Positions 1,644-58,571 of a stretch of 64,000 nucleotides of DNA are shown piece by piece. A program made the translations under genes and the position numbers. The first letter of the stretch is position 1, and each line of letters begins with the position of its first letter. Location of the stretch: contig CAWEMM010000008.1 of assembly GCA_963810095.1 (NCBI GenBank), positions 113,474-177,473 on the forward strand, given 5' to 3'. Source of the DNA: an uncultured Chloroflexia bacterium (lineage in GTDB: Bacteria; Chloroflexota; Anaerolineae; CG2-30-64-16). Below the pieces are notes generated by a model. It did not search any database and was not told the DNA's origin. It saw only the letters and a list, made by a program, of their open reading frames with translations.

Positions 1644-1674
1644 CAAATCGCGAACTATATCGTATAAATACGAT
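1640..1674 (+). promoter_or_regulatory. sigma70-type promoter with overlapping ArsR-type operator
   Basis: TTGACA(1640)-17-TATAAA(1663); perfect inverted repeat ATCGTAT-AA-ATACGAT at 1659-1674. Confidence 0.7.
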
Positions 1675-1710
1675 GTGAATTGCGAGAGCAGATAGGCGGG
1701 GTTGGACGAA

Positions 1711-2097: not shown

Positions 2098-2108
2098 GCT
2101 ACTCCGGC

Positions 2109-2154
2109 TTGACGGTGCTATTTTTTTGAGGTCAATCATCGTAATTAGCCGATG
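2109..2154 (+). promoter_or_regulatory. putative promoter and second ArsR-type operator upstream of the methyltransferase
   Basis: TTGACG at 2109; CATCG-N8-CGATG at 2137-2154, same ATCG-N8-CGAT core as 1659-1674. Confidence 0.5.
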
Positions 2155-2183
2155 AAATCCAACCAAGATAGGGAGATCGCATC

Positions 2184-4151: not shown

Positions 4152-4198
4152 GGGGATGAGGCTCCCCGGGGTTATAGACCCAGAACGTCGCAAGACTG

Positions 4199-4209
<11 letters not shown>
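4152..4209 (+). ncRNA. fluoride riboswitch (crcB motif) #1
   Basis: GGGGATGAGGCTCCCC … GTCGCAAGAC TGATAGCCTCTAC; P1, pseudoknot GAGGC/GCCTC; upstream of eno…fluC. Confidence 0.93.
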
Positions 4210-5560
<1,351 letters not shown>

Positions 5561-6187
5561 GTGCCCATGACGCGCTTCGTCCTGGTTCGGCACGGTCAGA
5601 CGGAGTGGAACCGGGTCGAACGGTTCCGCGGACGGGCCGATGTGCCGTTGAACGACGCCGGGCTGGCGCAGGCGGAGGCGACCGGGCGGCGGGTGGCCGA
5701 GGAATGGCAGCCCGCCGCCGTGTACGCCAGTCCGCTTAGCCGGGCATACGTGACGGCGGAAGCGATTAGCGTACGCTGCGGCCTGCCGGTGGCGCCGTTG
5801 GCCGGCGTGATCGATATCGATTACGGGGAGTGGCAGGGACTGACGCCCGAGGAGGTCGCCGCCCGCTGGCCAGACCTGCTGCACGCCTGGTATACCGCGC
5901 CGCAGACGGTGCAGGTCCCCGGCGGTGAGTCGCTGGCGGGACTGCGCGAGCGGGCCATGCGGTCTCTTTGTGAGCTGGTGGACCGGCACCGTGACGAGAC
6001 AGTCGCGGTCGTGAGCCACACGGTGGTCAACCGGGTGATCCTGTTGGGCATCCTCGGGCTGGGCAATGAACGGTTTTGGCGGCTGCGGCAGGACAACTGC
6101 GCAATCAATGTGTTCGACGCGGACGCCAGCGATTTCACGCTGGTGACACTAAACGATACCAGCCATCTGCGCTGCGCTGAGAAATGA
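5561..6187 (+). CDS. histidine phosphatase / phosphoglycerate mutase family (GpmB/CobC-like)
   Basis: LVRHGQT.WN…RFRG, SPLSRA, GES, VVSH. Confidence 0.9.
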   Translation: MPMTRFVLVRHGQTEWNRVERFRGRADVPLNDAGLAQAEATGRRVAEEWQPAAVYASPLSRAYVTAEAISVRCGLPVAPLAGVIDIDYGEWQGLTPEEVAARWPDLLHAWYTAPQTVQVPGGESLAGLRERAMRSLCELVDRHRDETVAVVSHTVVNRVILLGILGLGNERFWRLRQDNCAINVFDADASDFTLVTLNDTSHLRCAEK

Positions 6188-6209
6188 GCCGCCGCGCACC
6201 TGGAACGAG

Positions 6210-6761
6210 GTGACCGTGAATAACTTATGGCTTGAGCTGCGCATGGGGCCGAAAGCGCCTGATATCGTATATGCCATCGTCGAGTCGCCCAAGGGCCAGC
6301 GGAACAAGACGGAGTATAACATCAACAGTGGTGCGCTCGTGTTGAGCCGCACGCTCGCCTCGTCGCTGCACTACCCGGGCGACTATGGGCTCATCCCGCA
6401 GACCTTCTTCGAAGATGGTGAGCCCATGGACATCCTGACCATGACCGGCGAGCCGACTTTCCCCGGCTGCGTCATCCAGGCGCGCCCCGTGGGCATTCTG
6501 CGACTGATGGACGCCGGCCATCACGACGACAAGGTGCTGGCGGTGGCTGCCACGGACCCACTCTTCGCCGAGTACCAGGCGCTGAAGGACATCCCCCCTC
6601 ACTTCCTGCGCGAGGTGCAGCACTTCTTCGAGACGTACAAAGACCTGGAGGGCGGCAAGCGCGCGCAGGCGATGGGGTGGGAGGACGCGGCGGCGGCCAA
6701 GGAGGCCATCCTGCGCGCCCACCAGGTGTTCTTGGAGCGTTTCAGTCTGAAGGGCCTGTAG
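6210..6761 (+). CDS. ppa: family I inorganic pyrophosphatase (variant active site)
   Basis: YPGDYGLIPQT, DGEPMD, D…DDK, FFETYKDLE. Confidence 0.92.
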   Translation: MTVNNLWLELRMGPKAPDIVYAIVESPKGQRNKTEYNINSGALVLSRTLASSLHYPGDYGLIPQTFFEDGEPMDILTMTGEPTFPGCVIQARPVGILRLMDAGHHDDKVLAVAATDPLFAEYQALKDIPPHFLREVQHFFETYKDLEGGKRAQAMGWEDAAAAKEAILRAHQVFLERFSLKGL

Positions 6762-6849
6762 GACAGCGGCATCGTAGGGCGCCTGAGAGACGAGCCTATG
6801 AGCCGCGAGCGCCTGGTGTGGAGGCGTGCAGCAATGCAGAGGGGAGTGC

Positions 6850-7224
6850 ATGACGAGGTTCCTGTTGATTGGCCTGGGCGGCATGGTGGGCGCGAATGTG
6901 CGCTACTGGCTGCAGCAATGGGCTGCCAACCGCTGGGGTGCGGCGTTTCCCTATGGGACGTTGATCATCAATGTGAGCGGGAGTTTCATCCTCGGTTTCT
7001 TCATCGTATTGGTCACCGACCGGCTCGCGGTCTCGCCCAACTGGCGTTACCTGATTGCGGTCGGGCTGTTAGGCGGCTACACGACCTTTTCGTCGTTCAC
7101 GGTCGAAACGCTTACGCTGGCCGGGAGCGGGCGCCTGCTGCCCGCGTTGTTGTATCTGGGCGGCAATGTGGGGCTTGGCCTCATCTTCGCCTATCTTGGC
7201 ATGGCACTGGCACGGGCGCTTTAG
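6850..7224 (+). CDS. crcB: fluoride channel FluC/CrcB
   Basis: GGMVGANVRY, PYGTLIINVSGSF, GLLGGYTTFSSF; 4 hydrophobic segments. Confidence 0.96.
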   Translation: MTRFLLIGLGGMVGANVRYWLQQWAANRWGAAFPYGTLIINVSGSFILGFFIVLVTDRLAVSPNWRYLIAVGLLGGYTTFSSFTVETLTLAGSGRLLPALLYLGGNVGLGLIFAYLGMALARAL

Positions 7225-7276
7225 GAGCGCCTGCGAGCGGAGCACGCGCTCCTGGCAGAGCGTTCGGAGGTGCGAG

Positions 7277-8553
7277 ATGGAAATCGTCGGGACTGCCAAG
7301 AAAGTGACGGTATACATCGGCGAGAGCGACCGCTGGGCCGGTAAGCCGTTGTACATGGCGATCTTGGAGGTGCTCAAGGCGGCCGACTGCGCGGGGGCAA
7401 CAGTAACGCGAGGCGTCGCAGGTTTCGGCGCGCACAGCCGCATCCGGACCGCAACCATCGTCGACCTGTCGCCCGACCTGCCCCTCATCGTGGAGTGGGT
7501 CGACGACCCGGGGCGGGTCGAGCGTGTCATGCCGAAGCTGATCGAGATGGTCGCCGAAGGCATGATCACCTGCTCGGAGGTCGAGGTGCATGACTTACGG
7601 GCATCGCGAGCTGCGCCGGCTGCGGGCCTCGGCGCCGGTGCATGACTTGATGAGTCGCGAGGTCCGTTCTGTGCGGCCAGACACGAGCGTGGCGGATGCC
7701 GTAGAGATGCTGATCGGCAAGGCCTATAAGGCGCTCCCCGTCGTCGACGATGAGCGCCGCGTGGTCGGGATCCTCACGGACGGCGACGTGCTGCGGCGAT
7801 TGGGACTCCCGGCTGCTGGCGTGCAGTCGGCACTGACGCGCGCGGAGCTCGGCCGGGAGCTCGAGGCGCTGCGCCACAGCGGGCAGACGGTCAAGGATAT
7901 CATGGTGAGCCCGGTGGTAACGACCACGGAGGATGCGCCAATCGCCCAGGCCGTCAAAGTGATGACACAGCGGGGCATCAAGCGGCTGCTGGTCGTGGAT
8001 CGGGACGGCCGGCTCATCGGCGTGGTCAGCCGGGTCGACGTGCTCCGTGCGTTAGCTCAGCCGGCCGTGGCGGAGGCCCCCCAAGCCGAGGTGCGGCCGG
8101 GGCACCACGTCCAGGTACGCGACGTGATGGTGACGGAAGTGCCAAAGGTGCACGTCGATGCTGGGCTCAACAAAGTCGTGGACCTGCTGGTCAGCTCGGC
8201 CGAGCGCCGCATCGTGGTGGTGGATACGGATGAACGGGTACTGGGCATCATCACGGACGGCGATCTGATCAAGCGCGCCAGCGGGACCGAACGCAGCGGG
8301 TTGCTGGGCGCCCTGAGCCGCCGGCTTAGCAGTGCAGAGGGAGTCAACCTTGCCGCTCGGACCGCGGGCGAGGTGATGACGGCTAACCCCGTCACGGTGA
8401 CACCCGAAACCCGCCTGTTGGATGCCCTGCAATTGCTCTTGCGCGCACAAGGTCAAGCGTTTGCCTGTCGTGGACGACACGGGGCGGCTCGTGGGTCTCG
8501 TCGGTCGGGGCGAGATACTGCAGGCGCTCGCTTCCGAGCTGCCTGAGGAGTGA
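7277..8553 (+). CDS. DUF190 (PII-like) domain plus tandem CBS pairs; frameshifts near 7590 and 8445
   Basis: VYIGESDRW…GATVTRGVAGFG…DLSPDLP; then four CBS repeats ending HKVKRLPVVD…GEILQAL. Confidence 0.8.
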
Positions 8554-8554
8554 C

Positions 8555-8998
8555 GTGCTCAACACGGCGCAGCGCGCGGCGATCACGATCGGCCTGCGCG
8601 CCTTCGAGATGCACTTGCACGAGATCGCGCGCTGGCTGCGAGGCGCACCGGATGCCGGCGTTCTGTTTTGGGAGCACCTTGATTTCAGCGACGAGGTGCG
8701 CATACAGGCCGAGGAGCAAGTTGCGGCTGCGCTTGCCCTGGTCGCGGAGCTGGCCCAGCGTTTTGAACTGGAACGGACCCCAATCGACCTGGGGGCGAAG
8801 ATCACGGGCATGATGAGCGTCGACTGGGCCGACCTGGTGGACCTGCAGGCGAGCAAACTGCGGCGCTACGGCGGGGTAGCGGCTGAATTGAGTGGTTTGC
8901 TGGACGCCGATGTCGAACGACTCGCGGACACGGCGAAGGAGCTGGCAAAGCTCAGAGGGGCTCCGAGCGGACACGGGGCGGCAGAAGTAGATGGCTGA
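8555..8998 (+). CDS. hypothetical helical protein
   Basis: 147-aa ORF tightly packed between neighbours in the operon. Confidence 0.65.
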   Translation: MLNTAQRAAITIGLRAFEMHLHEIARWLRGAPDAGVLFWEHLDFSDEVRIQAEEQVAAALALVAELAQRFELERTPIDLGAKITGMMSVDWADLVDLQASKLRRYGGVAAELSGLLDADVERLADTAKELAKLRGAPSGHGAAEVDG

Positions 8999-9671
8999 GC
9001 AGGACACGCTATTCCACGAAATCTTGGACGCGCTCAAGGCGGGTGGCTGCCCGATATGCCGGCTGGGACACCGTGCGCGCGACGCGCTACATCGACACGC
9101 TCAACTACGAGGGCGTCAACGATCCGGGCCTGCGCGAGAGCCTCCGCAAGTCGCGCGGGCTCTGCAACCGGCATGCGTGGGAATGGTCGCATGTGCGCGG
9201 CAGCCCGCTGGGTGTTGCCATCGTTTACCAGAACCTGGTCCGGGACCTGGCCGAGGTGGTCGCGAACGGCAAGGCTCGCTACCAGAGCAAGGCCATGGCC
9301 GTCGAGGAGTCGGGGGGCCGCTGGCTCCTGCGGCACGCTGTCCAGCCTGCGTGGCCGAAGACGATGCAGGCGACCGTTATGCGACGACGCTGCTAGAAGT
9401 ACCTCGAAGGCCGGAGATCGACGAGGTGTACGTCAGATCGGGCGGACTGTGTCTGCTACACTTACGGGTGGCCGTCAACTTAGCGGACGTCGGGCAGATC
9501 ACGAAACTGGCGAACTGGCAGGCGGCCGTGTATCGCGGGCTGGACGAGCAGCTCGGCGAGTTCATCCGCAAGCACGACTACCGGTTCGCGGGCGAGCCGA
9601 TGGAGGCAGAGAAAGACTCGTGGACGCGCGCCGTGGCGGCAATCGCGGGCCAGGAGGAAGACGTGCGTTAG
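8991..9671 (+). CDS. DUF6062-like protein with two CxxC…CxxH units; frameshifts near 9080 and 9325
   Basis: CPIC…GLCNRH and CPAC…GLCLLH…FIRKHDYRF assembled across two frames. Confidence 0.7.
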   Translation: MAEQDTLFHEILDALKAGGCPICRLGHRARDALHRHAQLRGRQRSGPAREPPQVARALQPACVGMVACARQPAGCCHRLPEPGPGPGRGGRERQGSLPEQGHGRRGVGGPLAPAARCPACVAEDDAGDRYATTLLEVPRRPEIDEVYVRSGGLCLLHLRVAVNLADVGQITKLANWQAAVYRGLDEQLGEFIRKHDYRFAGEPMEAEKDSWTRAVAAIAGQEEDVR

Positions 9672-9736
9672 CAGGGCGGCTGGCGGCATGCTCGCCTTGC
9701 TTACATCAATGAATACATTGTCTACAAGGAGCTTGC

Positions 9737-10171
9737 ATGACTTCCTTTCCAACCTGGTTCGTCTGGGCGCTTTTATCCGCCGTCTTCGCGGCGTTCACCG
9801 CCATCTTCGCAAAGATTGGCATTAAAGGCGTAGATTCAGACTTGGCTACGCTCGTGCGAACTGCAGTCATCATTGTCCTGTTGGCGGGCTTCGTTTGGGC
9901 AACTGGGAAGTGGAGTAACCCGCTTACACTCCCGCACAAGACCTTGCTATTTCTTGGACTGTCCGGCCTTGCCACTGGAGCTTCCTGGGTTTGCTATTTC
10001 CGCGCGCTCCAGATCGGAGATGCTTCGAAGGTCGCTCCCGTAGACAAGCTGAGCTTGGTGCTCGTCGCCATTTTTGCTTTCGCGTTGCTCGGCGAACGGC
10101 CAACACTCCGCGAATGGACGGGCATTGCGATGGTCGCGGGCGGCGTGCTTGTGCTCGCGCTTAAGAGATGA
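9737..10171 (+). CDS. EamA/DMT family small transporter
   Basis: FAKIGIKGVDSDLAT.VRT, YFRALQIG.ASKVAPVDKLS; RBS AAGGAG. Confidence 0.9.
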   Translation: MTSFPTWFVWALLSAVFAAFTAIFAKIGIKGVDSDLATLVRTAVIIVLLAGFVWATGKWSNPLTLPHKTLLFLGLSGLATGASWVCYFRALQIGDASKVAPVDKLSLVLVAIFAFALLGERPTLREWTGIAMVAGGVLVLALKR

Positions 10172-10258: not shown

Positions 10259-10273
10259 GCGCCCAACTGAATA

Positions 10274-10332
10274 GGGATGAGGCTCCCGGCCGGGGCGAAC
10301 GCTCCGGTTGTCGCAAGACTGATAGCCTCTAC
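10274..10332 (+). ncRNA. fluoride riboswitch #2
   Basis: GGGATGAGGCTCCC … GTCGCAAGAC TGATAGCCTCTAC. Confidence 0.92.
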
Positions 10333-10364
10333 CAGTGCGCTACGGCACTGGTAGAGGCTTTTTT
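10324..10364 (+). terminator. riboswitch intrinsic terminator
   Basis: 15-bp stem AGCCTCTACCAGTGC / GCACTGGTAGAGGCT followed by a T tract. Confidence 0.88.
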
Positions 10365-10399
10365 GTTGTTTAGGGTTGGATCGGATCGTGAGGCGAGGC

Positions 10400-11626
10400 A
10401 TGAGCGACGATGTCGACGGAATGGCGGAGAAGGTTCCGGCGGACGCGTGGCTGAACCGCAACGTGGTCGGCATGGCGCTGGCCAGCTTCTTCAGCGACGC
10501 GGGGCACGAGATGGCGACCGCGGTGCTGCCATTGTTCCTGGTAGCAATCGGCGCACCGGCCGCAGCGCTCGGTGCGATCGAAGGCGTGGCGGACGCCGTC
10601 TCCTCCTTCGTGAAGCTGGGCTCAGGCTGGCTTAGCGACCAACTCGGGCGCCGCAAGCCGATCGCCGTTACGGGGTACGTGCTAACCGGCGTGACGACAG
10701 GATTGTTCGCGCTGACAACTACATGGCCGCAGGTGTTGGTGGTGCGAGCCGCTGGCTGGTTCGGCCGCGGCATGCGCGGTCCAGTGCGCGATGCGATGCT
10801 GGCAGATTCGGTTCCTGATGCGGCGCGCGGTCGGGCCTTCGGCTTCCACCGAGCCGGCGATACACTGGGCGCTATCGTCGGACCGTTGCTCGCCCTGCTC
10901 ATGCTGCGACTGTTGGGCGGGCGCGAGACGCCGGAAACGACCTACCGCCAGATCTTCTGGCTGACTCTCATCCCTGGTCTGCTGGCTGCACTCGCATTCG
11001 CAACCTTAGTGAAGGAACAGCGGCGGACGGGCAACGGCAAGTTCAACCTGTTCCATGCAATCGGACGGCTCCCGACGCCCTTTCGACGATTCCTCCTTGG
11101 GGTAGGGATATTCGGAGCAGGCGACTTCGCACACAGCTTGCTGACACTCCGCGCCGCGACCATGCTGGCGCCGTCGCTCGGCGTAAACCAAGCTGGCCAG
11201 GTCGCAATCGGCCTCTACGCAGTGCACAACATCGTCTACGCTGCGCTGTCTTACCCAATAGGCTCGCTCGGAGACCGCATCGGCAAGCGAGGCCTCCTCG
11301 CCTTTGGCTACAGCCTCGCGGGCGTAATGGCGCTCGGCTGGATCTTCGCCGTGCCCTCAGTCTGGTACCTCGGCGTGTTGTTTGCGCTCGGCGGGGCGTT
11401 CATCGCGGCCGAGGATACGCTCGAAGGCGCGCTGGCCGGAGATCTGCTGCCGGTTGACGTGCGCGGCACGGGCTACGGCGTTCTGGCCACCGTGAACGGC
11501 GCTGGGGACTTCCTGTCGAGCCTGCTCGTCGGCCTGTTGTGGTCGGCCGTGAGCCCTGCCGCCGGCTTTGCTTATGCAGGTGTGCTGGCTCTTATCGGGG
11601 CGACCATCGTGTTTCGAGTGCGATAG
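10400..11626 (+). CDS. MFS transporter
   Basis: GWLSDQLGRRK and GSLGDRIGKR motif A repeats; about 12 hydrophobic segments. Confidence 0.92.
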   Translation: MSDDVDGMAEKVPADAWLNRNVVGMALASFFSDAGHEMATAVLPLFLVAIGAPAAALGAIEGVADAVSSFVKLGSGWLSDQLGRRKPIAVTGYVLTGVTTGLFALTTTWPQVLVVRAAGWFGRGMRGPVRDAMLADSVPDAARGRAFGFHRAGDTLGAIVGPLLALLMLRLLGGRETPETTYRQIFWLTLIPGLLAALAFATLVKEQRRTGNGKFNLFHAIGRLPTPFRRFLLGVGIFGAGDFAHSLLTLRAATMLAPSLGVNQAGQVAIGLYAVHNIVYAALSYPIGSLGDRIGKRGLLAFGYSLAGVMALGWIFAVPSVWYLGVLFALGGAFIAAEDTLEGALAGDLLPVDVRGTGYGVLATVNGAGDFLSSLLVGLLWSAVSPAAGFAYAGVLALIGATIVFRVR

Positions 11627-11679
11627 GCGAGGAGAAACCAGATGGACGCCAAAGGCGGAATGAATTCGGAGGTTGCTTG

Positions 11680-13262
11680 ATGGCCGTCAGCGTGCCAGAG
11701 ACTCGGATCAGCACGTCCAAGACGGCGTTCTGTAGCGTCCTGTTTCTGCGACCCGAGGATAGGACCGAGAGCGAGACGCGCGAGGAGCCGGCCTGCTTCG
11801 GCGATCTGAACCTCGACCAGGTCGTCGATGCCGTGACAATCGGCAAGCAGGGCTATGACCTCAAACGCTTCTACTATACGCCCTTGCACGACGTGGACGC
11901 GATCCAGTACCGCCACGAGGTCATGCAGGACCTCGAACGCCGGACGCTGTTCGAGAAGATCGAGGAGTTCGCGCGCCGGATGCGGACCATGCGCGAGCAT
12001 CTCAAGCAGGCCGAGAAGCTGTATTACAAGCTGCAGAAGCAGCGCTGGTTCCTGGATGCGGTGAATACGTCTATTGCAGCGCCGTCCAGCCGCCTGGCCG
12101 AGGACCTGGCCGCGGAGAATCCGCAGTCGCGCGGGTTTGGAGCCCTGCGCGCCCACCTCGACGCGTACGTAGCCGGCGAACCTTTCCAGGTGCTCGCGGG
12201 CGAACTGCACGAGCTGCTCTCAGGCCTGGCCGGCGTGCGCTATGCGTTCGTGCTCAAGGGCCAGACGGTGAGCGTGCGGAAGTACGAGGAGGAGACCGAC
12301 TACAGCGCCGAAGTGCTGCGGACTTTCGAGCGGTTCAAGCAGGGCGCGGTCAAGGAGTACCTGGCCGAATTTCGCGAGCCAGTGGACATGAACCACGTCG
12401 AAGCACAGGTGCTCGAGTTGGTCGCCCGGCTCTACTCTGACCTCTTTGGTCGCATCGAGAGTTACTGCACCCGGCACGTCGATTTTATCGACGAGGTGCT
12501 TGGCGTCTTCGACCGCGAGGTGCAGTTCTATATCGGGTACATCGACTTCATGCGGTCGTTGCAGCGGCGGGGCTTGCGGTTCTGCTACCCGGTCGTGTCG
12601 GCTGACAGCAAGGCTGTATCCAGCCGTGAAGGGTTCGACGTGGCGCTTGCGCGCAAGCTGGCGGGCGAAGAAGCGAACGTGGTCTGCAACGACTTCAGCA
12701 TGCAGGGGGTGGAGCGGGTATTCGTGGTATCGGGGCCGAACCAGGGTGGGAAGACCACGTTTGCCGCGGGCTTTCGGCCAGCTGCACTACCTCGCCAGCA
12801 TCGGCTGTCCCGTGCCGGGCCGAGAAGCCCACCTCTACCTGTTCGATCAGCTCTTGACGCACTTCGAACAGGAGGAGAACCTCACTAACCTGCGCGGCAA
12901 ACTGGAAGACGAACTGGTGCGCATCCATGAAATCCTCCAAGCGGCGACGCCGCGCAGCATCGTGATCATGAACGAGATCTTCACGTCGACGACGCTGCAG
13001 GACGCGGTCTTCCTGGGCGAGCGGGTCATGCAGCGCATCCTCGACCTGGATCTCCTGTGCGTCTGCGTGACCTTCATCGACGAGCTGGCTGCGCTGAGCG
13101 ACAAGATCGTCAGCATGGTCAGCACCGTGACGCCGGAGAACCCGAGCATGCGGACCTACAAGATCGTGCGGCGGCGGGCCGACGGGCTCGCGTACGCGAT
13201 TTCGATCGCCGAAAAGCATCGCTTGACCTACGAAGCGTTGAAGGAGCGCCTCGCGACCGTGA
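11680..13262 (+). CDS. MutS-like ATPase A (domain V only, no mismatch-binding domain); frameshift near 12765
   Basis: FGDLNLDQ, Walker [14 protein letters not shown]…LRGKL, MNEIF, ADGLAYA. Confidence 0.8.
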
Positions 13263-14780
13263 AAGCCTTCCTGATGTATCCGCAGCGGGATTTCGACGTG
13301 AAGCAGGCGTTGCCGCCGAATGCAGAAGCCCTGGTGCAGGACCTCGAGCTCAGCACCTTGTTCGCCGCGATGGCGCACGGCGACAAGTTCCTGTTCGAGG
13401 TGGCCCGGGTTGCCGTTTTGTCCGGCGCGGACGCCGACGTGCGCACGATCCTGTATCGGCAGGGCGTGCTCAAAGACTGCCTGAACCATGCGGCGCTCAT
13501 TCGGCAGATCTACGACTTGGCTGTGGACACCATCGAACGCGAGAAGCATGTGTGGTGGGGCGCATTCGGGAGAATGCCGGACACAATACTGCACCGGTCG
13601 GTCGAAGTGCTTGAGCTATTCGTCGGCGTGCTCAAGACGTTGAGGCGGATCGCCGACGAGCATGTTTCAGGCTTCGAGTCGGAGGGCTTCAAGGCGTTCT
13701 TCGCCATGCTCCAGCGGGAGCTCGACGACGTGTTCTTTGCCGAGGTCCAGCAGCACGTGCGCAATCTCAAGTTTCGCGACGGCATCCTGGTCAGCGCGCA
13801 GCTCGGCCAGGGCAACCGGGGGGTGGACTACGTGCTGCGAAAGCCGAACCGCAAGCAAGGCAACTGGTTCCAGCAGGCATTGGGGCCGCGGCCGACCGCC
13901 TATTCCTTCCGTATCGCGGATCGGGACGACAACGGTGCGCGGGCCCTCTCCGAGTTGCGGGACCGGGGCGTCAACCTGGTGGCAAACGCGGCCGCCCAGT
14001 CATGCGACCACATCCTTTCGTTCCTCACGCTGCTGCGCACCGAGCTCGCCTTCTACGTGGGTTGTCTGAACCTGCACGACCGGCTACAGGAGAAAGCCAC
14101 GGCAACGTCCTTCCCGGTTCCCTTGCCGCCGACGGAGTGCCGGCACACGGCGCGCGGGCTGTACGACGTTTGCCTGGCACTCGTCGTCGACCAGCCGGTG
14201 GTGGATAACGACCTGGACGCTGACGGCAAGAACCTTGTCGTCATCACCGGCGCGAACCAGGGGGGCAAGTCTACCTTCCTGCGGGCCATTGGCCTGGCCC
14301 AGACGATGATGCAGTGCGGCATGTTCGTGCCGGCCGAGGCGCTGACAGCGAACGTCGCGGATCGCGTCTTCACGCACTATAAGCGCGAGGAAGATGAGAG
14401 CATGAAAAGCGGCAAACTCGACGAGGAGTTGGGCCGGATGAGCGAGATCGTGGACCACATGACCCCGGATTCCCTGCTGTTGCTAAACGAGTCGTTTGCC
14501 GCTACGAACGAGCGGGAGGGATCGGAGATCGCGAGGCAGATCGTCACCGCACTGCTGGAGCGCGGGATCAAGCTCTTCTACGTGACGCACCTATACACAT
14601 TCGCCCGCGCGATGTATGATAAGAATCTATCTCATGCCCTGTTCTTGCAGGCCGAACGGCGCGAGGACGGCGAGCGCACGTTCAAGCTGGTTGCCGGTAC
14701 GCCATCGCAAACGAGCTTCGGCCCGGACCTGTACGAGAAGGTTTTTGCACGGGACGGCTCGGTCGGCCGAGGTTTCGTAG
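13259..14780 (+). CDS. MutS-like ATPase B (3' boundary uncertain; reads in frame into the next gene)
   Basis: KAFLMY..RDFD start after [39 protein letters not shown]. Confidence 0.8.
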
Positions 14781-14797
14781 ACGCCGGAGTATCGCCC

Positions 14798-16486
14798 TTG
14801 GAAACCATTGTCACGGTCCTTCGGGACGGCAAGCCGACAAACATCGGAGAGGACGCGCTGCGCAAGGGAGACACCTTGCTCCTCCAGGCGGGCGAACTCG
14901 TCGCGGCCGATCTGAAGCTGGTCGGGGCCAGGGGCCTGGAAGTCGACGAATGGGACCTGACCGGCGAGATCGTGCCCGTTGCGAAGCGCGTCGACGGACA
15001 CGAGGACGTCTTCGTTTACCGCGGCAGCCGGGTGACACGCGGGAATGGCAGCGGCGTGGTCACGGCCGTCGGGGAAGCGACAGAGTACGCCCAGTGCGTG
15101 AAGCAGTCCTGGGAGCGCACGCGTTATCGCCGGCCGTCGGCTCCTCACCCGGGGCTCCTTCGTCGTGTTGGCCCTCCTGGCGCCGCCCTTTGCCATGGCC
15201 GCGGTGCGGCACGAGAACGGGATCTTGCTGGGGCTCCTCGCCGCCGCCTTGGCCGTCCTCGCTGTCGTTCTTGAGAACAGCGCGCTGTTCGACTATGCGG
15301 TGACCGGGAAGGAAGTCAGCCGGATCGAGCAACAGGGCATTCAGATGCGTGACGTTGGTGCACTTGAAGTGATGGAGCGCCTGAATGTCCTGTGCGTGGA
15401 CAAGACCGGCGTCCTGACGACCCGCGACCTGAAGGTGAAGGAGATCTACCTGGCAGATGGTCCCTGCGAGCTGGCGGTACTTTGGCACCAACGAGGAGCC
15501 GGCCACGCTGGTCCGCACCGGCTGCGCGCTCTGCAACGACGTAATGTATGCCGAGAAAGCGAGCCTGGCCGCGCCGATCGATCGGGCCCTCATCGCGTTC
15601 GCGCGGGCCAGCGGGACCGACATCGCGGACGCGCACCAGACCTATCACAGGGTGTACGACAAGCCGTTCGATTCCGAGGAGCGCTACATGGCCTGTGGCT
15701 TCGAATCTGGCGAGAAGACCGTGTTCTTTGCCAAGGGCGACCCGGACGTCGTGCTGAAAATGTGCGGCACGTACAGCACGCCCTCGGGCAGTCAGCAGAA
15801 GCTAGACTTGCCTTTCTGGATATCCACGCGAACTCATGCCGAATCGATCAGCAAGGCGGGCGACGTGGTCATGGCGCTGGCCTACGGCGTCGGGGGATCG
15901 GCGACACCTCCGCTGCACTACACGTTTCTCTGCCTGATCCAGCTCGAGAATCCGCTTCAGCCAAACGTGCCCGGCACGCTGCGCGAGCTCAGGGGGAGGG
16001 CATCCGTACTGTGATGCTGACCGGCGATAGGACAGAGACCGCGTCAAAATCGCGGTCGCGGCCGGCATTGCCTCGGACGAGAGGCTGTGTCTGACCGGCC
16101 GGCTGATGGCGCACATGGGCGCGTTTGATATCCGCGAGCAGGCAACCTTCATCCCCATCTTTGCGCGGCTCCTGCCATCACAAAAGGCGCTCATCGTCAG
16201 GCTATTGCAGCAGAAGAACAAGGTCGTGGCCATGGTGGGTGACGGGGCAAACGACACACTGGCGTTGAAGGCGGCGGACGTCGGCATGGCCTTTGGCAGC
16301 GACGCGTCGCCCATGGCGAAGCGGGTAGCCCCCATCCTCATCAACGACCTGGCCGATCTGGTTACGCTTGTTGAAGGCGGCAGGCGCATTCACGAGCGCC
16401 TGGGTGAACTGGCCATGTTCCGGGTCGCGCTGCTGATCGTGATGTTCCTGGGGCTGTATGGGTGGGTATATAGCTTGTTGAGATAG
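14798..16486 (+). CDS. shortened P-type ATPase (A, P and N domains, about 3 TM); several frameshifts
   Basis: LTGE (14960), DKTGVLT (15399), KGDPD, MLTGD, GDGAND motifs; possible TTG start after GGAG. Confidence 0.72.
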
Positions 16487-16524: not shown

Positions 16525-17645
16525 TCAGCTATTGCCAAGCAGTAGTATGAGCGCCTCTCTCCGTAAGGCCAGCCGAACCGGCTCGCCTGCCTCCAGGCTA
16601 AGCGGCGTGTAGCTATACGGCGGGTGTGACACCTCGATCTGGTGCCCGTTCGGCAGCAGCACCTTCAGGCGCCGGGCGCCAGGCCGCAGGTAGCTCTCGA
16701 TGATCCGTCCGGTCACCACGTTGTGCCGAACGGTCTCCGACAGCGGTCGATCCACGTAGAGCACCTTGACGTCTTCGGGACGGATGTAAGCTGTCACGGT
16801 GCTGCCCGGCTCAACCTCCTGCGGCGGCGCAGTAAGGGACATGCCGTCCCAGTCGAGAGTCAGACCGCCTGCCTCCGCCGCGACCACTTGCGCACGGAAT
16901 ACGTTCGCGATCCCCATGATTTGGGCCACGTCGGCGTTGGCGGGATACCGAAAGACCTCGTCGATGGGGCCGACCTGTTTGACCTCGCCGTCGCGCATGA
17001 TGGCCAGGCGCCGCCCCACTGCAAAGGCGTCTTCGAGACGGTGCGTTACGTACACGACAGGCAAACGCAGTTCGCGCTGCAGCGCGACAAGGTCCAGCTG
17101 GAGGCGATGGCGTGCGGCGACATCAAGGGCCGAAAAGGGCTCGTCCAGGAGGAGAACACGAGGTGCTGCCGCCAGGGCGCGGGCAATTGCGATGCGCTGT
17201 TGCTGCCCCCCGAAAGTCGCTCGGGGTAGCGATCCGCCAGGTGAGGGATGCCCATGCGATCCAGCAGCTCAGCAGCGCGCTTCCGCCCTTCCCGACCTTG
17301 CAATGGGTAAGCTACATTCTCAAGTGCGGTGAGGTGCGGAAATAGTGCATAGTGTTGAAATACATAGCCCAAGCGCCGAGCGTGGGCGGGGAGGTTCACC
17401 GTCGGGGTTCCAGCCTCTCGCTGGAAGAGTATCTGTCCGCCCAGGGTGATCCGGCCCCGCTCGGGAACGATCAACCCGGCGATGGCGTTCAGGGTTGTCG
17501 TCTTGCCCGACCCGGAAGGGCCGAACAACACGAGGACCTCGGCGTCTACCTGCAAATGCACGTGCAACTCAAAGTTCAACTGCCGGACGGAGAACCCAGC
17601 GTAGAGACAAGGAGTCGGGCAAGGGTCCGAAACGTTGTCCATCAT
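16525..17645 (-). CDS. modC: molybdate ABC transporter ATPase with TOBE domain; frameshift near 17205
   Basis: GPSGSGKT, FQHYALFPH, LSGG, VTH. Confidence 0.85.
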
Positions 17646-17646
17646 G

Positions 17647-18325
17647 CTAACCTTGCTCGGCTGGGTCCAAGGCAACAGGGGCCCGCCTGGGCTGTTCGAA
17701 CCGGCGCACCGCCCACAGACTTAGGAAGGCTAGCGCGGTCATCAGCACCACCATCGCGTTGGCCTGGTCATACTGGCGGTTCTGCACGGCGTCGTAGACC
17801 GCGAGCGGCAAGGTCTGTGTGCGGCCGGGAATGTTCCCGGCAACCATGAGGGTGGCGCCGAACTCGCCGAAGGCGCGCGTCGCGGCCAGTACCAGCCCGG
17901 CGAGGATACCGCGGCGTGCGAGCGGCAGCGTCACGCGGCGCAATAGCGCGAGCTCGGAGGAGCCCAACGTGCGAGCAGCCTGCTCGAGCGCCGGGTCCAC
18001 TCCCGCGATGGCGGCACGCGCGGCCTGCACGAGCAGCGGCAGCCCGACGATCGCCGACGCCAGGGCCGCCGCGGGCCAGGTGAACAGGATGCGCCAGCCA
18101 AACCACTCCACCACCGGACTGCCGCGGCCCAAGAGCAAGCAGCAGGTAATAACCGACGACGGAGGGCGGCAGAATCAATGGGAGCATGATGACGGCCTCT
18201 ACGATCGTGGCGCCTCGGAACTTCTTGCGCGCCAACAACAGGGCGAGGGGAAGTCCACCGACGATCATCAGGACGGTCGCAACGGCCGTAACCTGGAGCG
18301 ATAACAGCAGTGGGTGCCAGCTCAT
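17647..18325 (-). CDS. modB: molybdate ABC transporter permease; frameshift near 18135
   Basis: LPLILPPSVVGYYLL, AARTLG, FGEFGATLMVAGNIPGRTQTLPL. Confidence 0.92.
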
Positions 18326-19159
18326 TGCACGGGCGCCTCGCCGGGTAAGATAAAGCCGTACTTGCGCATGATCAGCCGTCCTTGAGGTCCGTTCACGAAC
18401 TCGGCAAACGTGCGGCGCCGCAGCCTCGTGCGGCGTGCCCTTAATGACTGCCAGCGCCTGGTCGATCGGCGGATGCAGCTCTTGCGGAATGAGCGTGTAG
18501 CGACCGGGAGCTCCCTGGGCGGCTGCCGGGATGCTTAACGACAGGGCGACGATCGCTACCTCCACGTTGCCGGTTTCGGCGTACTGCAGGGTCTGACTGA
18601 CATTCTCGCCGAGCACCAGCTTGGGCTGCACTGCGTCCCAGATGCCTGCCGACTGCATGGCCTGGCGCGCGGCGACACCGTAAGGCGCGTGGTCCGGGTT
18701 GGCAATCGCGACGTGGACGATCTCGGGGCGTGTCAGGTCCTCCAGCTGGGTGACCTCCAGCGGGCTATCGGCACGGCTCCAGAGCGCGATGCGACCTCGC
18801 GTGTACAGATGTTTCGTGTCCGGTAGGATCAGATCCTGCTTTTCCAGGTCATCGATGTAGCTCTGGTTCGCGGCCGCAAATACGTCAACGGGTGCGCCCT
18901 TCTCGATCTGCTGCGCGAGCTGCCCGGTCGAGCCGAAGTTGAACACGACCTTGTTCCCGGTGTCGGCCTCGAACTGCTTACCAATCTCGCCGAAGGCGTA
19001 AGTCAGGTCGGCAGCAGCGGACACGGTGAGGGTGACCGGTTGCTGCTGAGCCGGCGCACGGGAAGCGGCTGGCAGCCGGCCAGGACCAGGCAGGCCAGTA
19101 TCAGTAGGGGAAAGCGCGGTAGACCCGGCACGCTGCGAGAGTCGGGTGTGGCGTATCAT
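18322..19159 (-). CDS. modA: molybdate-binding protein; frameshift near 18410
   Basis: VSAAADL, FGSTGQLAQQI, ANPDHAPYG, GENV. Confidence 0.9.
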
Positions 19160-19708
19160 GGAGCTTCCGTTGTGTGTGGGGAGCAGCGGGAAACCGCCAG
19201 GCGGCGAAACTCATCGAGCGCATCCAGGGTCGCCTGGACCTGCGCCTCGCGCAAGTGATGAACCAGGGCGACCACGTCGTTCTCGAAATGTCTGCTGCTG
19301 TGCCTGATTGAGCCAGTCGCCAAGCGCACGCTTTTGCGCGTCAATGAGTCTCGACTGCTTCGGACGGGTCCCGGCGCAGTGCCATCCAGACCCTGGCCAG
19401 GAGTGCGGTTCGCAGGTTACGCGGCCGGACTTCGGGGGTGCGAATCCACTGCTCAAAAGCCGCGCGGCCGCTGTTCGGTCGGTTCAAACATGTCCGTGCC
19501 GGCCCCTTCGATTGCTCTTCGGCCAACTCGACGATGAAGGCCTTCTGCTTGAGCTTGCCCAGCAGGAAGTAAATCTCGCTGCGCTCAATCCGCCAGATCG
19601 CGCGCAGAGCTGCATCCGCTTGCACGAAACGCGAAGCTCGTAGCCGTGGATCGGGCGTTCGCACAGCAGCCCCAGGATGATGTTCTCACTTGGCCAATCA
19701 GCATGCAC
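19156..19708 (-). CDS. PadR family transcriptional regulator (frameshifted)
   Basis: IILGLLCERPIHGYEL…IWRIERSEIYFLLGKL winged helix across frames. Confidence 0.75.
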
Positions 19709-19797: not shown

Positions 19798-21419
19798 TTG
19801 TGACGGACAACGCGGAAGAGGATGCAAGAGGTGACAGAGAAAGGACCGGCGGGAGAACGGTCGCCGGGGGTCCTGGCTGCCCAGGCGCCCACGCGACCCC
19901 GGCACAGTGGAGGCGCTGCGGGCTGTGCCGTCAGGTACGTCCAGCGTCCACGCTCCAAGACGCTCGAGCAGGCCCTCAATCGATCCGCCCGAAAGCCTGC
20001 CCAGGCCTCGACGGCGGACCGCGCGACGTCCTCCGAAACGGGTGCGGCACTGTAGCGCGCTTGCATATAGGCGTCCGTAATCGTAGCCAGCGCGGCGCCT
20101 TGCTCCGGATGCGCAGCGCTCAGGCTCGCCAGGTACTCCAGCGGCGTGACGCCGGGCGGCGACCGCCCGCCCCGTCAGCAGCCCATGCCAGCAACGCCTG
20201 GTAGACCCGCCGGACCTGCGCGGCGGGATCGTCTCCGACGACGGACGCGAAGGGCGGGGGCGCCTCAGTGCGTTTTCGGCCTTTAAGCAGGTTGCCCAGC
20301 TGCGCGTGGAGCAGGTCGAGTGAGAGCACGCTCTCGCGCTGCTCTTCGACATCCTCCTCGCTGTAGGTGCGAAAACGGCGGAACGCCAGGGCGAACAAGA
20401 AAAAGACGAGCGCCGCAACGAGTGCGGCCCCGACTACGCGGAAGATAAGGTAGGCGGTCGGCGACAGGCCGGCCGGCTGTTGCTGTAGATCACCAAACTG
20501 GTCGGCCAGGCTCGGGGGTGTCTGGATGTTGACATCCGATAGGGTGAGCGGCCGGAAGTGAAGGACCAGGCCGACGAGGCCGCCTACTTTGAACACGACC
20601 CAGGCGATGGCAAGGATAACCCAATAGAGGATTCGTGCGACTATGTCGAGCACGCCGGACAGCGCGGCCATAAGCTTGCTGACGGCCGAGGGCGTAAAGA
20701 GCTGCGCCAGCAGCAGGCCGCTCACTAACAAGGCTGCGATGACCACGACCACGGTGACAGCCCAATAGCGTGTCAGGCGGAAGGCTGATGGGTCGGGCGC
20801 CCCTTGAGCGCGCGCGGTGCTGCGCAAGCTGGCGATGGCGAGGCTTGCGAGCCCCAAGGCAAAGAACGCCAGGATGGGCGACAGCATGGCGCCCAGGCCT
20901 ACGGGATCAAGCGCATAGTGCCAGATTGCCGCTCCGCCCAGGGCAAAGACGCCCAACGCGAAGTTGGCCGCATAGGTATCGTAGCCGGGGGTATCGCGGC
21001 CCGCAAGCAAGCCCCACCACCACAGCCACGCTGCGAAGATGACGATCACAATGGCCTCGAGCGGCTGGTTTGCGAGCGAGAATAACCAGGCGCGGCTCCA
21101 GAGCGGGAAGCGCGCCGCTGCCGAGCGCCGCGTAGAGGGTGAGGGCGATCGCGAGCAGGCCGGCGCACGCGACAAGCAGCTGGCCTTGGCGCTCCGAGCG
21201 AATCCGGAAGGCGGCGGTCTCGGCTGCGGCTGTACTCAGAGCCAGGAGCGCAAGGATGATGGGGAAGCCGATCAGCTCACCGTGGCCAGGACCCCGGACG
21301 GATGCACTAAGGACGAAGAGCAGGGCATAGACCCAGACGGCTCGCATGCCGGCAAGGAGATACGGCAGAAGGCCGTTGTCGATCGGGTGCCACTTGCGAT
21401 CATGCAGGTCGAGACGCAT
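19794..21419 (-). CDS. polytopic membrane protein with C-terminal DUF4129-like domain (frameshifted, 3' end uncertain)
   Basis: Many TM segments then VRRVYQALL…TPLEY…ITDAYMQARY. Confidence 0.7.
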
Positions 21420-22632
21420 CGAGCACGAGCTCCGTCAGGTGGTTGTAGGCCGAGCGGCCGCCGATCCAGAAGGTCGGAATGTCAGGAGAAAACGTGCGCG
21501 GTGGCGCGTCCCCGACGGTGACCAGCCCGACCGGATGGCGGGCTGCGCGCACGTCCAGCAGTACGGCGGCAAGGTCGGTATTGGGCACCGCGGTAATGAC
21601 AAGGACGGTTGCGCCGAAGGGGAGCCGCGGCGTCTCGACCTGGAGCATGTGTTTGAAATCGGCTGCCGTGAGCCCGGACAAGCGGGCGAGGCCATCCAGG
21701 ATATCGAACCAGTGATCGGGCCGGCGCGAGGGCGGGAGGCGCAGGGTGAGCGCTCCCGTCCCGCGCCACCCCCCGTTCACGTAAAGTCCGACCGCATGGC
21801 GCTGGTCGAGCAAGTGGCGCGCCAGTGACGCCGCGGCACTGATCCCGTATTCGAGGTATTCGGGTACGTAGCCCGGCGAATCGGGTAGTGTGCGAAGGTC
21901 AAGGAACAGGCCGGTCACCTGCGCTGCGCTGGGATCGAAAGTCCTGGTCTGGAGCTCGCCCCGCCGGGCGGTGGCGCGCCAATGAATCGTGCGCAAGCTG
22001 TCGCCTGCTGCGTAGGCACGGACGCCGGAAATCCGCAGCGGATCGTCGGCCACGCGGCGCAAGGCCTTCTCGTCGCCGAAAGGATACCCGGCGGGCAGCC
22101 GGAACGGTGCAACGGGCACGACGCGTGGGTAGACGATGAGGCGGTCTACTTGGAGCACCTCCTGCTGTTGATCGCGGAACCCGAACATATCGCCTGAGCT
22201 AATCTCGGCCGGGCCAAATTCCAGCGCGCCGCGGTGCACGGCCTGGATCCGGTACCGCTTGCGGATGCGTTGGTAGAAGCGTAGCGAGACGATGTTGATC
22301 AGCAGGCGGCGCCCCGGCTTCCAGTGATAGTGTAGCGTCCCGCGCAGGAGCTTGACCTCGTTCGGCCACTCATCCTCGACCTTGAGCCAAGATAGCGGCA
22401 GCGGCTTAGCGTTGACGATCTCGACCGTCACGTCCGTCTCCTCCCCAACAAAGAGCCGGGGTTCGCCAAAGTGGCGGGTGTAGGTGACCCCCGCGAGGGC
22501 GTAGCGGTCCCAGAGCCCGGTTACGATCGCGAGCAGGAGCAGCAAGACGCCGGCCAGGAAGAGCAGGGGGTTGCGCAGCACGAGCGCAATTGCGAGCGCC
22601 AGGAACGTCAGCCACTTGAGAAGACGGCTCAC
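21400..22632 (-). CDS. DUF58 domain protein
   Basis: GVRAYAAGDSLRTIHWRATARRG, VYPRV. Confidence 0.9.
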   Translation of the reverse strand: MSRLLKWLTFLALAIALVLRNPLLFLAGVLLLLLAIVTGLWDRYALAGVTYTRHFGEPRLFVGEETDVTVEIVNAKPLPLSWLKVEDEWPNEVKLLRGTLHYHWKPGRRLLINIVSLRFYQRIRKRYRIQAVHRGALEFGPAEISSGDMFGFRDQQQEVLQVDRLIVYPRVVPVAPFRLPAGYPFGDEKALRRVADDPLRISGVRAYAAGDSLRTIHWRATARRGELQTRTFDPSAAQVTGLFLDLRTLPDSPGYVPEYLEYGISAAASLARHLLDQRHAVGLYVNGGWRGTGALTLRLPPSRRPDHWFDILDGLARLSGLTAADFKHMLQVETPRLPFGATVLVITAVPNTDLAAVLLDVRAARHPVGLVTVGDAPPRTFSPDIPTFWIGGRSAYNHLTELVLDASRPA

Positions 22633-23606
22633 GGGGTGGAGGGCTCCAGCGACCAGGTTTCTTCTACCGGCACAGGCGTGCGGGCGGCGATCTCTAGCAG
22701 CACATCGTTGATCGAACGGCCACGCACGCGGGACTGGCTGCTGGCAAGCAGGCGGTGAGCCAGGACGGGCTGGAGCAGGCGCTTGACGTCGTCCGGCAGC
22801 ACGAAGACGCGGCCGGAGAGCGCGGCAAGCGCCTGGCCAGTGCGGTAGAGAGCGAGAGAGCCGCGCGGGCTCGCGCCCAGCTGCAGAGCTTCATGTTCGC
22901 GGGTGGCCCGCACGAGGCGCAGGATGTAGGTTTCTATGGCCGGATGCACGAAGACCTGGCGGATCGCCTGTTGAAGCCAGAGGATATCCTCCACCGAGGC
23001 AACGGGCCGGAGTGTGGCGAGAGGCTGCTGCTCGCGGAAGCGGCGCAGAATCTGACGCTCATCGTCCTCGCCGGGGTAGCCGAGCGCCAGGCGCAGCAGG
23101 AAACGGTCGACCTGGGCCTCGGGCAGCGGGAACGTGCCCTCCAACTCGATGGGGTTCTGCGTCGCCAGGACGAGGAAGGGCCGGGGGAGTGGGCGGGTGA
23201 CGCCGTCGACAGTGACCTGGCGTTCTTCCATCGCCTCGAGCAGGGCTGACTGAGTACGCGGTCCGGCGCGATTCACCTCGTCGGCGAGCAGGATCTGTGC
23301 CATAAGCGGGCCGGGGCGATACTCGAAATCGAGCGTGCGCTGATTGAAGACGCTCACGCCCGTGATGTCGCCAGGCAACAGGTCGGGCGTGAACTGGATG
23401 CGCTGGAAGCTGCATCCGAGCGAGCGGGCGAGCGCCTTGGCAAGCGTGGTCTTGCCGATGCCCGGCACATCCTCGAGTAGCACGTGGCCTTCACAGGCCA
23501 GCGCTACGAGCAGTAGCTCGATGACCTCGTCCTTCCCCACGATGACCCGTGCCACGCTTTCACGCACGTCGCCCGCGATGCACTGCACCCGTTCGATGTC
23601 GGTCAT
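22629..23606 (-). CDS. MoxR family AAA+ ATPase
   Basis: HVLLEDVPGIGKT, RIQFTPDLLP, DEVNR, ATQNPIE.EGTFPLPEAQ.DRF. Confidence 0.96.
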   Translation of the reverse strand: MTDIERVQCIAGDVRESVARVIVGKDEVIELLLVALACEGHVLLEDVPGIGKTTLAKALARSLGCSFQRIQFTPDLLPGDITGVSVFNQRTLDFEYRPGPLMAQILLADEVNRAGPRTQSALLEAMEERQVTVDGVTRPLPRPFLVLATQNPIELEGTFPLPEAQVDRFLLRLALGYPGEDDERQILRRFREQQPLATLRPVASVEDILWLQQAIRQVFVHPAIETYILRLVRATREHEALQLGASPRGSLALYRTGQALAALSGRVFVLPDDVKRLLQPVLAHRLLASSQSRVRGRSINDVLLEIAARTPVPVEETWSLEPSTP

Positions 23607-23662: not shown

Positions 23663-23699
23663 AAACAAAAAGCCTCTACGGAACCGGTCCCGTAGAGGC
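23663..23699 (-). terminator. riboswitch intrinsic terminator
   Basis: Minus strand GCCTCTACGG…CCGTAGAGGC then TTTTTGTTT. Confidence 0.85.
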
Positions 23700-23740
23700 C
23701 ATCAGTCGGCAGTCCGACGGTTGACAGCGAGCCTCATCGC
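23692..23740 (-). ncRNA. fluoride riboswitch #3
   Basis: Reverse complement GCGATGAGGCTCGC tgtcAACC GTCGG actg CCGAC TGATGGCCTCTAC, the compact canonical form. Confidence 0.92.
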
Positions 23741-23764
23741 ATGGCGACTGCGTCGCCGAGCAAC

Positions 23765-23815: not shown

Positions 23816-23831
23816 GGGACTAATCGAATAA

Positions 23832-23891
23832 GGGATGAGGCTCCCGGCCGGCGCATCGCGCACGGCCTGTCGCAGGACTGATAGCCTCTAC
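23832..23891 (+). ncRNA. fluoride riboswitch #4
   Basis: GGGATGAGGCTCCC … GTCGCAGGAC TGATAGCCTCTAC. Confidence 0.9.
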
Positions 23892-23923: not shown

Positions 23924-23943
23924 GTTACGGTGTGGAGGTCAGT

Positions 23944-41658: not shown

Positions 41659-41693
41659 TCGCCGAAGCATGACACGCCGAGTAGGAGTTTCGA

Positions 41694-42508: not shown

Positions 42509-42512
42509 GGTC

Positions 42513-49349: not shown

Positions 49350-49388
49350 CCTTGAAGGGTCCATACATAGATTAAGGAGGCACTTCTT

Positions 49389-58510: not shown

Positions 58511-58571
58511 CCGGCGCCAAGCCGTCAGTGCCCGGCCATCACACTGCTCAGGAAGCAGAAGGAGCTTTCAC

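Follow-up and report, generated by a model that had tools for sequence, protein, structure and literature searches.

The fluoride riboswitch class (the crcB motif, Rfam family RF01734) combines a P1 stem with a GAUGR loop, a pseudoknot and a short P3, and Baker et al. reportedly noted MutS-related genes behind such riboswitches in 2012. Canonical MutS proteins carry an Asp-Glu pair in the Walker B motif. Among described MutS-family proteins, the MutS2 homodimer has a core of lever, clamp and ATPase domains (T. thermophilus 7vuf and 7vuk, B. subtilis 7qv3, T. maritima 9kce), and KamC (NF052383), also a MutS-type ATPase, is named as the lysine 5,6-aminomutase reactivase, a role other than on DNA. 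In the text of Weinberg 2010 that deals with the crcB motif, mutS-annotated genes follow the motif and are called DNA-repair genes (PMC2864571), and HAD-annotated genes are described as often riboswitch-associated in a review (PMC11139923). A literature search found no functional study of a MutS protein or P-type ATPase linked to a fluoride riboswitch. Here, an operon that joins genes of these kinds is analyzed. It lies at 10273–16486 of a stretch of 64,000 nucleotides from an uncultured Chloroflexia bacterium (assembly GCA_963810095.1, contig CAWEMM010000008.1, positions 113,474 to 177,473 of the forward strand), hereafter the window, to which all coordinates refer.

A preliminary description of this DNA had presented it as a riboswitch-led operon of an MFS transporter, two MutS-like ATPases (A and B) and a P-type ATPase, reading as one fused frame. 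The operon is real and is a member of the known fluoride regulon. Its anatomy can be given with considerable confidence as four separate genes behind a fluoride-type leader, overlaid by an artefactual frame of 942 codons; that the fused frame is an assembly artefact, far likelier here than a true fusion, is held with higher confidence still.

The frame at 12446–15274 and its breaks

The open reading frame (ORF) at 12446..15274 (+) is listed as open throughout its 942 codons, and by Pfam it contains two MutS_V stretches (123.9 bits) and an E1-E2_ATPase actuator domain. A run without stops from the C-terminus of A via B into a P-type actuator, as first described, was thus recovered with its domains. 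Both junctions also have the signals ascribed to them, a ribosome-binding site (RBS) with a start codon (AAGGAG at 13241-13246 with GTG 13259; GGAG at 14786-14789 with TTG 14798, all +) and close out-of-frame stops (TGA 13239, TGA 13260 and TAG 14778, +). G+C content is 62-66% over most of the window, and each of the six frames contains long open stretches. Comparison with intact proteins of relatives, by tblastn and alignment, located seven single-base frame breaks within 11680-16486 (4.8 kb), an indel density in the operon of about one per kb. The 942-codon frame is not a protein but a creation of single-base insertions and deletions: two such errors removed the stops of A and B and left an apparent long frame. 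Single-base errors, suggested early on as a cause of the fusion, gain strong support from the seven breaks, from the relatives and from splits across the genome; the idea of one frame as one protein is not supported, and in relatives A and B are separate.

MutS-like A occupies frame 1 for its N-terminal 362 codons (11680..12765, +), up to Walker A, as traced by alignment and by tblastn with A proteins of relatives. One surplus base at 12766 breaks the frame at a seamless joint (TTFA|RAFGQ, no residue lost), and the C-terminal 164 codons follow in frame 2 (12767..13258, +), ending in ...KERLAT; in nearly all relatives, the A protein terminates in the same alignment column as this last residue. 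The second break is the A/B junction ACC GTG A (13254..13262, +), placed by the junctions of relatives and by contig ends. The window reads ...GCG ACC GTG AAA there; minus one base the reading becomes ...GCG AC[G TG]A, the usual overlap of the family, in which the A stop TGA would overlap the B start GTG. In public genomes A was found directly upstream of B in all 20 loci examined (21 pairs), with ATGA or GTGA overlaps at 19 of the 21 junctions, a short gap at two and an in-frame junction at none. Two short-read contigs cease to match the window at 13253 and 13257, from opposite sides of the junction, and over 11942-13681 a contig 94% alike falls 5 letters short of the window.

MutS-like B (13259..14752, +; homology, Pfam MutS_V and a structural model) starts at the GTG and is expected to end at about 14752 or at the TAG of 14778-14780. 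It is 60-65% identical to the B proteins of relatives over residues 1-500. P0122 (84% identical, 499 aa) starts with VKAFLMYP, equivalent to the GTG start of the window, and ends with EKVFGAR, as does P0123 (83% identical, 494 aa). Among the best 120 homologues of B, 119 are proteins of 494-634 aa with MutS_V alone, and the combination of MutS_V with E1-E2_ATPase occurs only in the window's own public gene call (P0121, 806 aa). Proteins of Moorella/Neomoorella glycerini are among the homologues listed. The 806-aa call is a product of assembly errors, and the fused MutS-like/P-type frame is unfit as biology or as a database entry. The stop of B was lost at a third break, placed at 14750..14766 (+) by the C-termini of the nearest relatives and a related contig. 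It appears to be due either to a missing T (CGG TGA read as CGG GAC, 14750-55) or to a surplus base near 14765, which would hold the TAG at 14778 out of frame; one related contig is without base 14765. A 928-aa 'B' frame in another locus (L043) contains no additional Pfam domain.

The short P-type-ATPase-like gene (14798..16486, +; tblastn and Pfam) starts with the TTG and is scattered over five pieces, 14807-15136, 15138-15476, 15481-15996, 15990-16049 and 16043-16480, in frames 2, 0, 1, 0 and 2, respectively. The breaks found by tblastn are at 15137, at 15477-15480, in a G5 run (15991-15995) and in an A4 run (16046-16049). Jointly, the pieces span residues 5-561 of the 562-aa orthologue of a related genome, G016, with nothing lost. 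P0085, a separate P-type-like protein 87% identical to the middle piece (149/172) and encoded on a contig equal in length to that of P0123, keeps a single frame through the four break sites, and 119 of the best 120 homologues are proteins of 531-594 aa (44-100% identity). As to single bases, 15137 is missing from related contigs of two studies (X3 and X4), a contig that is 99% alike, with 2 differing letters in 253, holds two extra letters in 15937-16189, and a contig 96% alike has one letter more in 16006-16272.

The rest of the window was surveyed by a Pfam scan of 142 candidate coding segments (stop-to-stop, at least 75 codons, filtered by G+C at third codon positions, GC3); 160 segments had passed the filter, of which the 18 from 10274-16486 were left out and analyzed separately. 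Pfam domains split between neighbouring frames revealed at least nine further breaks in eight other genes, namely ABC_tran, a binding-protein/permease pair in which the binding-protein frame continues into its permease, KdpB, KdpD (twice), DcuC, DUF2252, OTCace (ornithine/aspartate carbamoyltransferase) and ADI (arginine deiminase). These split or run-together genes lie in 16528-19210 (-), 39273-45172 (+), 49371-53420 (+) and 58449-60120 (+). GC3-based frame calling was discarded as a means of counting frameshifts for its low discrimination, and split Pfam domains were used in its place. Elsewhere in the source genome (G000; 16 contigs, 6.1 Mb, 88.5% complete), the last 137 profile positions of rpoB fall in a different frame and rpoC runs across at least three frames; because essential genes cannot be pseudogenes, these splits are consensus errors. 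The frame breaks are consensus errors of a poorly polished assembly, not peculiar to the operon, and any finding in the window based on reading frames needs equal caution.

The leader and alternative readings of the operon

A fluoride-riboswitch-like aptamer core was detected at 10273..10332 (+). Its P1 (10273-10288; AGGG/CCCG, three pairs) closes the loop GAUGAGGCU, which contains the 8-nt AUGRNNNN motif. An extra 9-bp hairpin of 22 nt (10288-10309) separates P1 from P3, GUCGCAAGAC (10310-10319), which is followed by UGAU and by the 3' pseudoknot strand AGCCUC (10324-10329), complementary to GAGGCU of the loop at six of six positions. A terminator scan identified the expression platform, an intrinsic terminator at 10324..10365 (+) with a 15-bp stem (to 10359) and a U tract; its 5' arm is the pseudoknot strand AGCCUC itself, for which terminator and pseudoknot would compete. 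The fold of 10262-10368 has an energy of -56.2 kcal/mol (z -5.73), and none of 200 shuffles was equally stable. Our core scanner, a pattern of P1, loop and pseudoknot, gave 25 matches in 12.3 Mb (both strands of the 6.1-Mb source genome), of which four were judged convincing, all in the window: at 4152 (+), 10273 (+), 23831 (+) and 23741 (-).

The leader thus shares with RF01734 the P1 with GAUGR loop, the pseudoknot, the short P3 and the overlapping terminator, and differs from it by the 22-nt insert, by GUU in place of AAC and by a score of 9.3 bits. Rfam gave no match at gathering threshold anywhere in the window. The designation 'riboswitch-led' therefore stands as regards the aptamer core and the overlapping 15-bp terminator, and not as regards the family threshold. 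The low RF01734 score results from the hairpin inserted between P1 and P3. Such insertions recur: ahead of its P-type-like gene, G016 has a near-identical leader whose hairpin shares the stem but not the loop, the leader of G024 has the same stem with a compensated base pair, and 15 leaders of related genomes contain hairpins that differ in sequence and begin within 1-2 bases of P1. Extra hairpins are often found in leaders of this bacterial class (L021, L023, L025, L026, L027, L049, L050, L054 and the window). In a pattern scan of 301 genomes from this class, an unsuitable P3 spacing let even the leaders of the window go undetected, and its seven incidental matches were used only as examples. 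Certified RF01734 elements are present in G016 and G012. Several fluoride riboswitches with an extra hairpin fall below the Rfam cut-off and would escape standard annotation, so that riboswitches of this clade are under-counted.

Some observations weigh against four genes behind a fluoride-type leader, and they are considered here together with the explanations that they would favour. For the leader, RF01734 gives 9.3 bits with an E value of 2.7 (10265-10338) against a cut-off of 34, the leader reads GUU where relatives have AAC before P3, and the extra hairpin is more stable than its shuffles (at most 18 of 500 as stable) in only six of the 15 leaders. A leader that is just a terminator or attenuator hairpin and resembles an aptamer by chance, in an operon not regulated by fluoride, would account for the poor score and for the replaced linker. 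It would leave to coincidence that P1, the GAUG loop, the complete pseudoknot complement, P3 and UGAU follow in order and overlap a terminator, a combined pattern whose background is 21 other matches in 12.3 Mb. Moreover, a certified riboswitch (36.7 bits) stands before the MFS gene in the orthologous MFS-A-B operon of G016, and certified members such as L033, L034 and L038 tolerate insertions in the same linker. We consider a chance likeness improbable.

For the frames, no sequencing run contained half of the sampled words (the best runs hold 5-12%, at most 0.12, and come from relatives), so that a real mutation in the source strain keeps a residual probability at any one site, and the five gaps of the 94%-alike contig are placed no more closely than within 11942-13681. 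Real breaks in an operon, or a whole genome, decaying into pseudogenes would fit the seven breaks in 4.8 kb, as well as public runs that come from relatives and not from the same strain. Decay is nevertheless very improbable, since every joint is seamless and the P-type-like pieces are 55-80% identical to a distant orthologue without internal stops, since rpoB and rpoC are broken to an extent intolerable for a living cell, and since two missing bases of the P-type-like gene fall in a G5 and an A4 homopolymer run, the kind of place where read errors would be expected and where contigs 96-99% alike hold the extra letters. A polypeptide truly fused in the strain, A with B or B with the P-type-like protein, or one made by programmed frameshifting, could appeal to the open frame and to natural A-B fusions in other lineages, which would make a true A-B fusion biologically tolerable. 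Twenty-one long forms were found among longer proteins and five were examined: P0256 (1034 aa, 10 members), P0259 (on a 1.5-Mb contig) and P0246 (24-residue linker) join A and B through a linker, P0242 does so without one (RERLRA|MKAHLLY), and the fifth, P0247, is a B-MFS chain. In the window, however, the junction retains an RBS, a GTG start and an overlapping TGA one base off register, relatives 83-84% identical have a stand-alone B with the same GTG start, related contigs cease to match at 13253 and 13257, the B plus P-type architecture is confined to the window's own call among the best 120 B homologues, and A itself would need a change of frame at 12766, where inspection of the sequence revealed no slippery site. 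A true fusion is hardly credible on this evidence, and a unit of four separate genes, read with consensus errors from A onwards, remains the preferred explanation.

Fluoride-associated genes in the window and elsewhere

The association of MutS-like genes with fluoride riboswitches, which the preliminary description gave as established, is in print in the crcB text of Weinberg 2010 (PMC2864571) and was seen again here. Certified RF01734 elements lie upstream of A-B on the coding strand in 13 of the 20 loci, and the core scanner gave 15. The metagenome-assembled genomes with these loci are labelled as Chloroflexota, Acetobacteraceae, Xanthobacteraceae, Burkholderiales, Actinomycetota, Spirochaetales and Chthoniobacter, a spread over several phyla that includes Proteobacteria and Verrucomicrobiota. 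The first gene of the operon encodes an MFS transporter (10400..11626, +; Pfam MFS_1, 131.4 bits); the listed ORF begins at TTG 10376, and the start is likely to be ATG 10400 behind GAGG, as judged from the sequence. Related MFS genes adjoin A-B or stand behind a riboswitch of their own in several loci.

The family of the short P-type-like protein was surveyed in 26 metagenome loci that include the N-terminus. The scanner found an aptamer core at most 130 nt upstream in 12 of them, compared with a plus-strand match of any kind in one of 34 loci of canonical P-type controls. Twenty of the 26 loci, namely the 12 positives and eight of the 14 negatives, were submitted to Rfam: 11 of the 12 positives were confirmed, giving a certified riboswitch directly upstream of the gene in 11/26 loci, and the eight negatives yielded one element only, on the other strand. 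The MFS and short P-type genes are themselves widespread fluoride-riboswitch targets. No paper linking the short P-type family to fluoride riboswitches was found in a search that did not extend to the gene lists of Baker et al. 2012, in which the MFS and short P-type (HAD-annotated) genes may already be named.

The window is a fluoride island, with three sister leaders besides that of the operon. RF01734 scored two of the three below threshold, at 26.7 and 30.6 bits. The leader at 4152-4209 (+) precedes an enolase cluster at 4247-10171 (+), with genes for enolase, a histidine phosphatase of phosphoglycerate-mutase type, pyrophosphatase, CrcB, DUF190, CBS, a DUF6062-like frame and EamA. Closer paralogues, at 63-81% identity, exist elsewhere in the source genome for enolase, pyrophosphatase, CrcB, DUF190 and CBS, and the set looks like fluoride-inducible spare copies. 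With second copies of enolase, pyrophosphatase and CrcB behind a sister leader, the gene context of the operon leader is typical of RF01734.

Behind the leader at 23692-23741 (-), a MoxR-type AAA ATPase (AAA_3, 213.7 bits) is encoded together with a DUF58 protein at 21400-23606 (-); to our knowledge, this pair has not been described as a fluoride-riboswitch target. The leader at 23831-23891 (+), which has another inserted hairpin and a terminator of its own, precedes an ORF at 23932-24621 with no Pfam match. At the start of the window (3-3689, +) there is an arsenic-type cluster with regulators of ArsR type, three ArsC-like genes for low-molecular-weight phosphatases and a double methyltransferase.

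The MutS-like pair, the P-type-like protein and their possible role

Intact A and B proteins of relatives match MutS_V with 68-74 bits, and none of the Pfam families for MutS domains I-IV was found in them, MutS_V being their sole MutS-family domain. The Walker A motif of MutS ATPases is present in both (GPNQGGKTT in A, GANQGGKST in B). The Walker B motif, by contrast, departs from the canonical one in having Asn-Glu in place of Asp-Glu; N410-E411 of B is invariant in 23 aligned sequences, and N416-E417 of A is conserved in at least 90% of the alignment. In addition, A has Thr-Phe where B keeps Thr-His, and the conserved His is gone. A structural model of B (pLDDT 78, pTM 0.78, with low confidence in the clamp region 173-239) aligns from residues 15-494 to 260-771 of E. 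coli MutS with Z of about 28, and to residues 1-497 of MutS2 with Z of 27-29 over 352-387 residues (27-30 over all alignments), B residue 21 corresponding to MutS2 residue 1. According to the model, B is a lever-clamp-ATPase core without mismatch-binding and connector domains.

Neither MutS1 nor MutS2 accommodates these proteins. The B model begins at the equivalent of residue 260 of E. coli MutS, and the NCBIfam model mutS1 gives 62-75 bits versus 641.7. The lever, clamp and ATPase set of MutS2 is present, but A and B, at about 500 aa, stop where the ATPase domain stops and have no KOW/Smr tail; they have Asn-Glu and not Asp-Glu in Walker B, and mutS2 gives 62-79 bits versus a cut-off of 400. 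Whereas MutS2 is a homodimer, the A and B genes would predict a heterodimer of two paralogues. B also matches the ATPase region of KamC (72-76 bits), far under the 300-bit cut-off and over only about 120 residues, which makes KamC a lead and not a case of membership. In comparison with the DNA-repair genes of the crcB passage in PMC2864571, the genes seen here come invariably as A-B pairs encoding proteins of about 500 aa, with no MutS domains I/II and an Asn-Glu Walker B. Elsewhere in the source genome, nothing closer than distant MutS-family matches was found for A and B.

The natural single-chain fusions speak for joint action of A and B. A heterodimeric MutS-type ATPase apart from mismatch repair, as first proposed, is supported indirectly by these fusions, by the adjacency in 20/20 loci, by the restriction of the B model to domains III-V and by the lack of domain I-IV families. 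The accompanying proposal, that the pair works with the transporter and a P-type-like enzyme, is weak. The P-type-like gene occurs near A-B only in the window's own family (G022 and G016) and beside A-B in none of the 20 wider loci. P0247 (934 aa) combines a full MutS-like B with a window-type MFS transporter through a linker of about 45 residues; a second B-MFS chain was sought among the best 150 representatives, none of which covers both halves (P0292 is HEAT+MFS), and P0247, a singleton and maybe an artefact, was rejected as a Rosetta-stone link. A conserved gene of about 335 aa follows B in G016 (L021, 10825-11832) and in Ca. Amarolinea (L030, 9087-10085), with 63% identity between the two and no Pfam or NCBIfam match; it occupies the place of the window's P-type-like gene.

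The short P-type-like protein has the Pfam domains E1-E2_ATPase, Cation_ATPase and Hydrolase, and the G016 orthologue belongs to the P-type ATPases by TIGR01494 (NCBIfam, 176.8 bits versus a cut-off of 62.3). Like the type II enzymes LMCA1 of Listeria and SPCA1, this orthologue contains the motifs TGE, DKTG, KGD, TGD and GDGAND, of which the window pieces show DKTGVLT, LTGEIVP, MLTGD and GDGANDT. It aligns to residues 113-700 of the 880 of LMCA1 (199.8 bits), but at about 560 aa it is without M1-M2, M6-M10 and PEGL. Ion pumps have at least six helices and a PEGL-type M4 site, whereas a hydropathy window detected three hydrophobic segments and no PEGL. Because of these absences the protein is unlikely to be a usual ion pump. 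Elsewhere in the source genome only matches of 25-29% identity were found, which were taken to be canonical P-type ATPases.

Combined, these traits suggest how the operon might work. The MFS transporter, MutS-like A, MutS-like B and the short three-helix P-type-ATPase-like protein form a four-gene transcription unit. If the leader behaves as the known riboswitch class does, fluoride and Mg2+ would stabilize the aptamer pseudoknot GAGGCU/AGCCUC, which would withhold the 5' arm of the terminator (10324-10359) and allow transcription to read on. Translation of A and B would be coupled through a GTGA overlap, as in relatives. The two proteins would form a heterodimer, suggested by the natural fusions, with the MutS2-core architecture of the B model and no mismatch-binding domain. 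With Asn-Glu in both subunits and A devoid of the conserved His, as the alignments show, the ATP sites are unusual and asymmetric.

As to what the pair does, the tentative proposal, which has the balance of probability against it, is that A and B clamp nucleic acid or ribosomes and have a nucleotide switch tolerant of Mg-fluoride. A more specific version is improbable: in a MutS2-core heterodimeric clamp, the Walker B change from Asp to Asn would uncouple the ATP sites from Mg2+ and make the switch insensitive to Mg-fluoride transition-state mimics, and the pair would take over or restore a process poisoned by fluoride, be it on DNA, on ribosomes or on an enzyme. In this lineage it might act with a membrane-anchored, non-pumping P-type ATPase and the MFS transporter. 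If true, this version would explain the association between mutS genes and fluoride riboswitches, unexplained since 2010. The 'mutS' genes behind fluoride riboswitches are clarified as an obligate A-B pair with Asn-Glu Walker B sites and a predicted MutS2-like core, and the short three-helix P-type ATPases emerge as a family frequently under riboswitch control.

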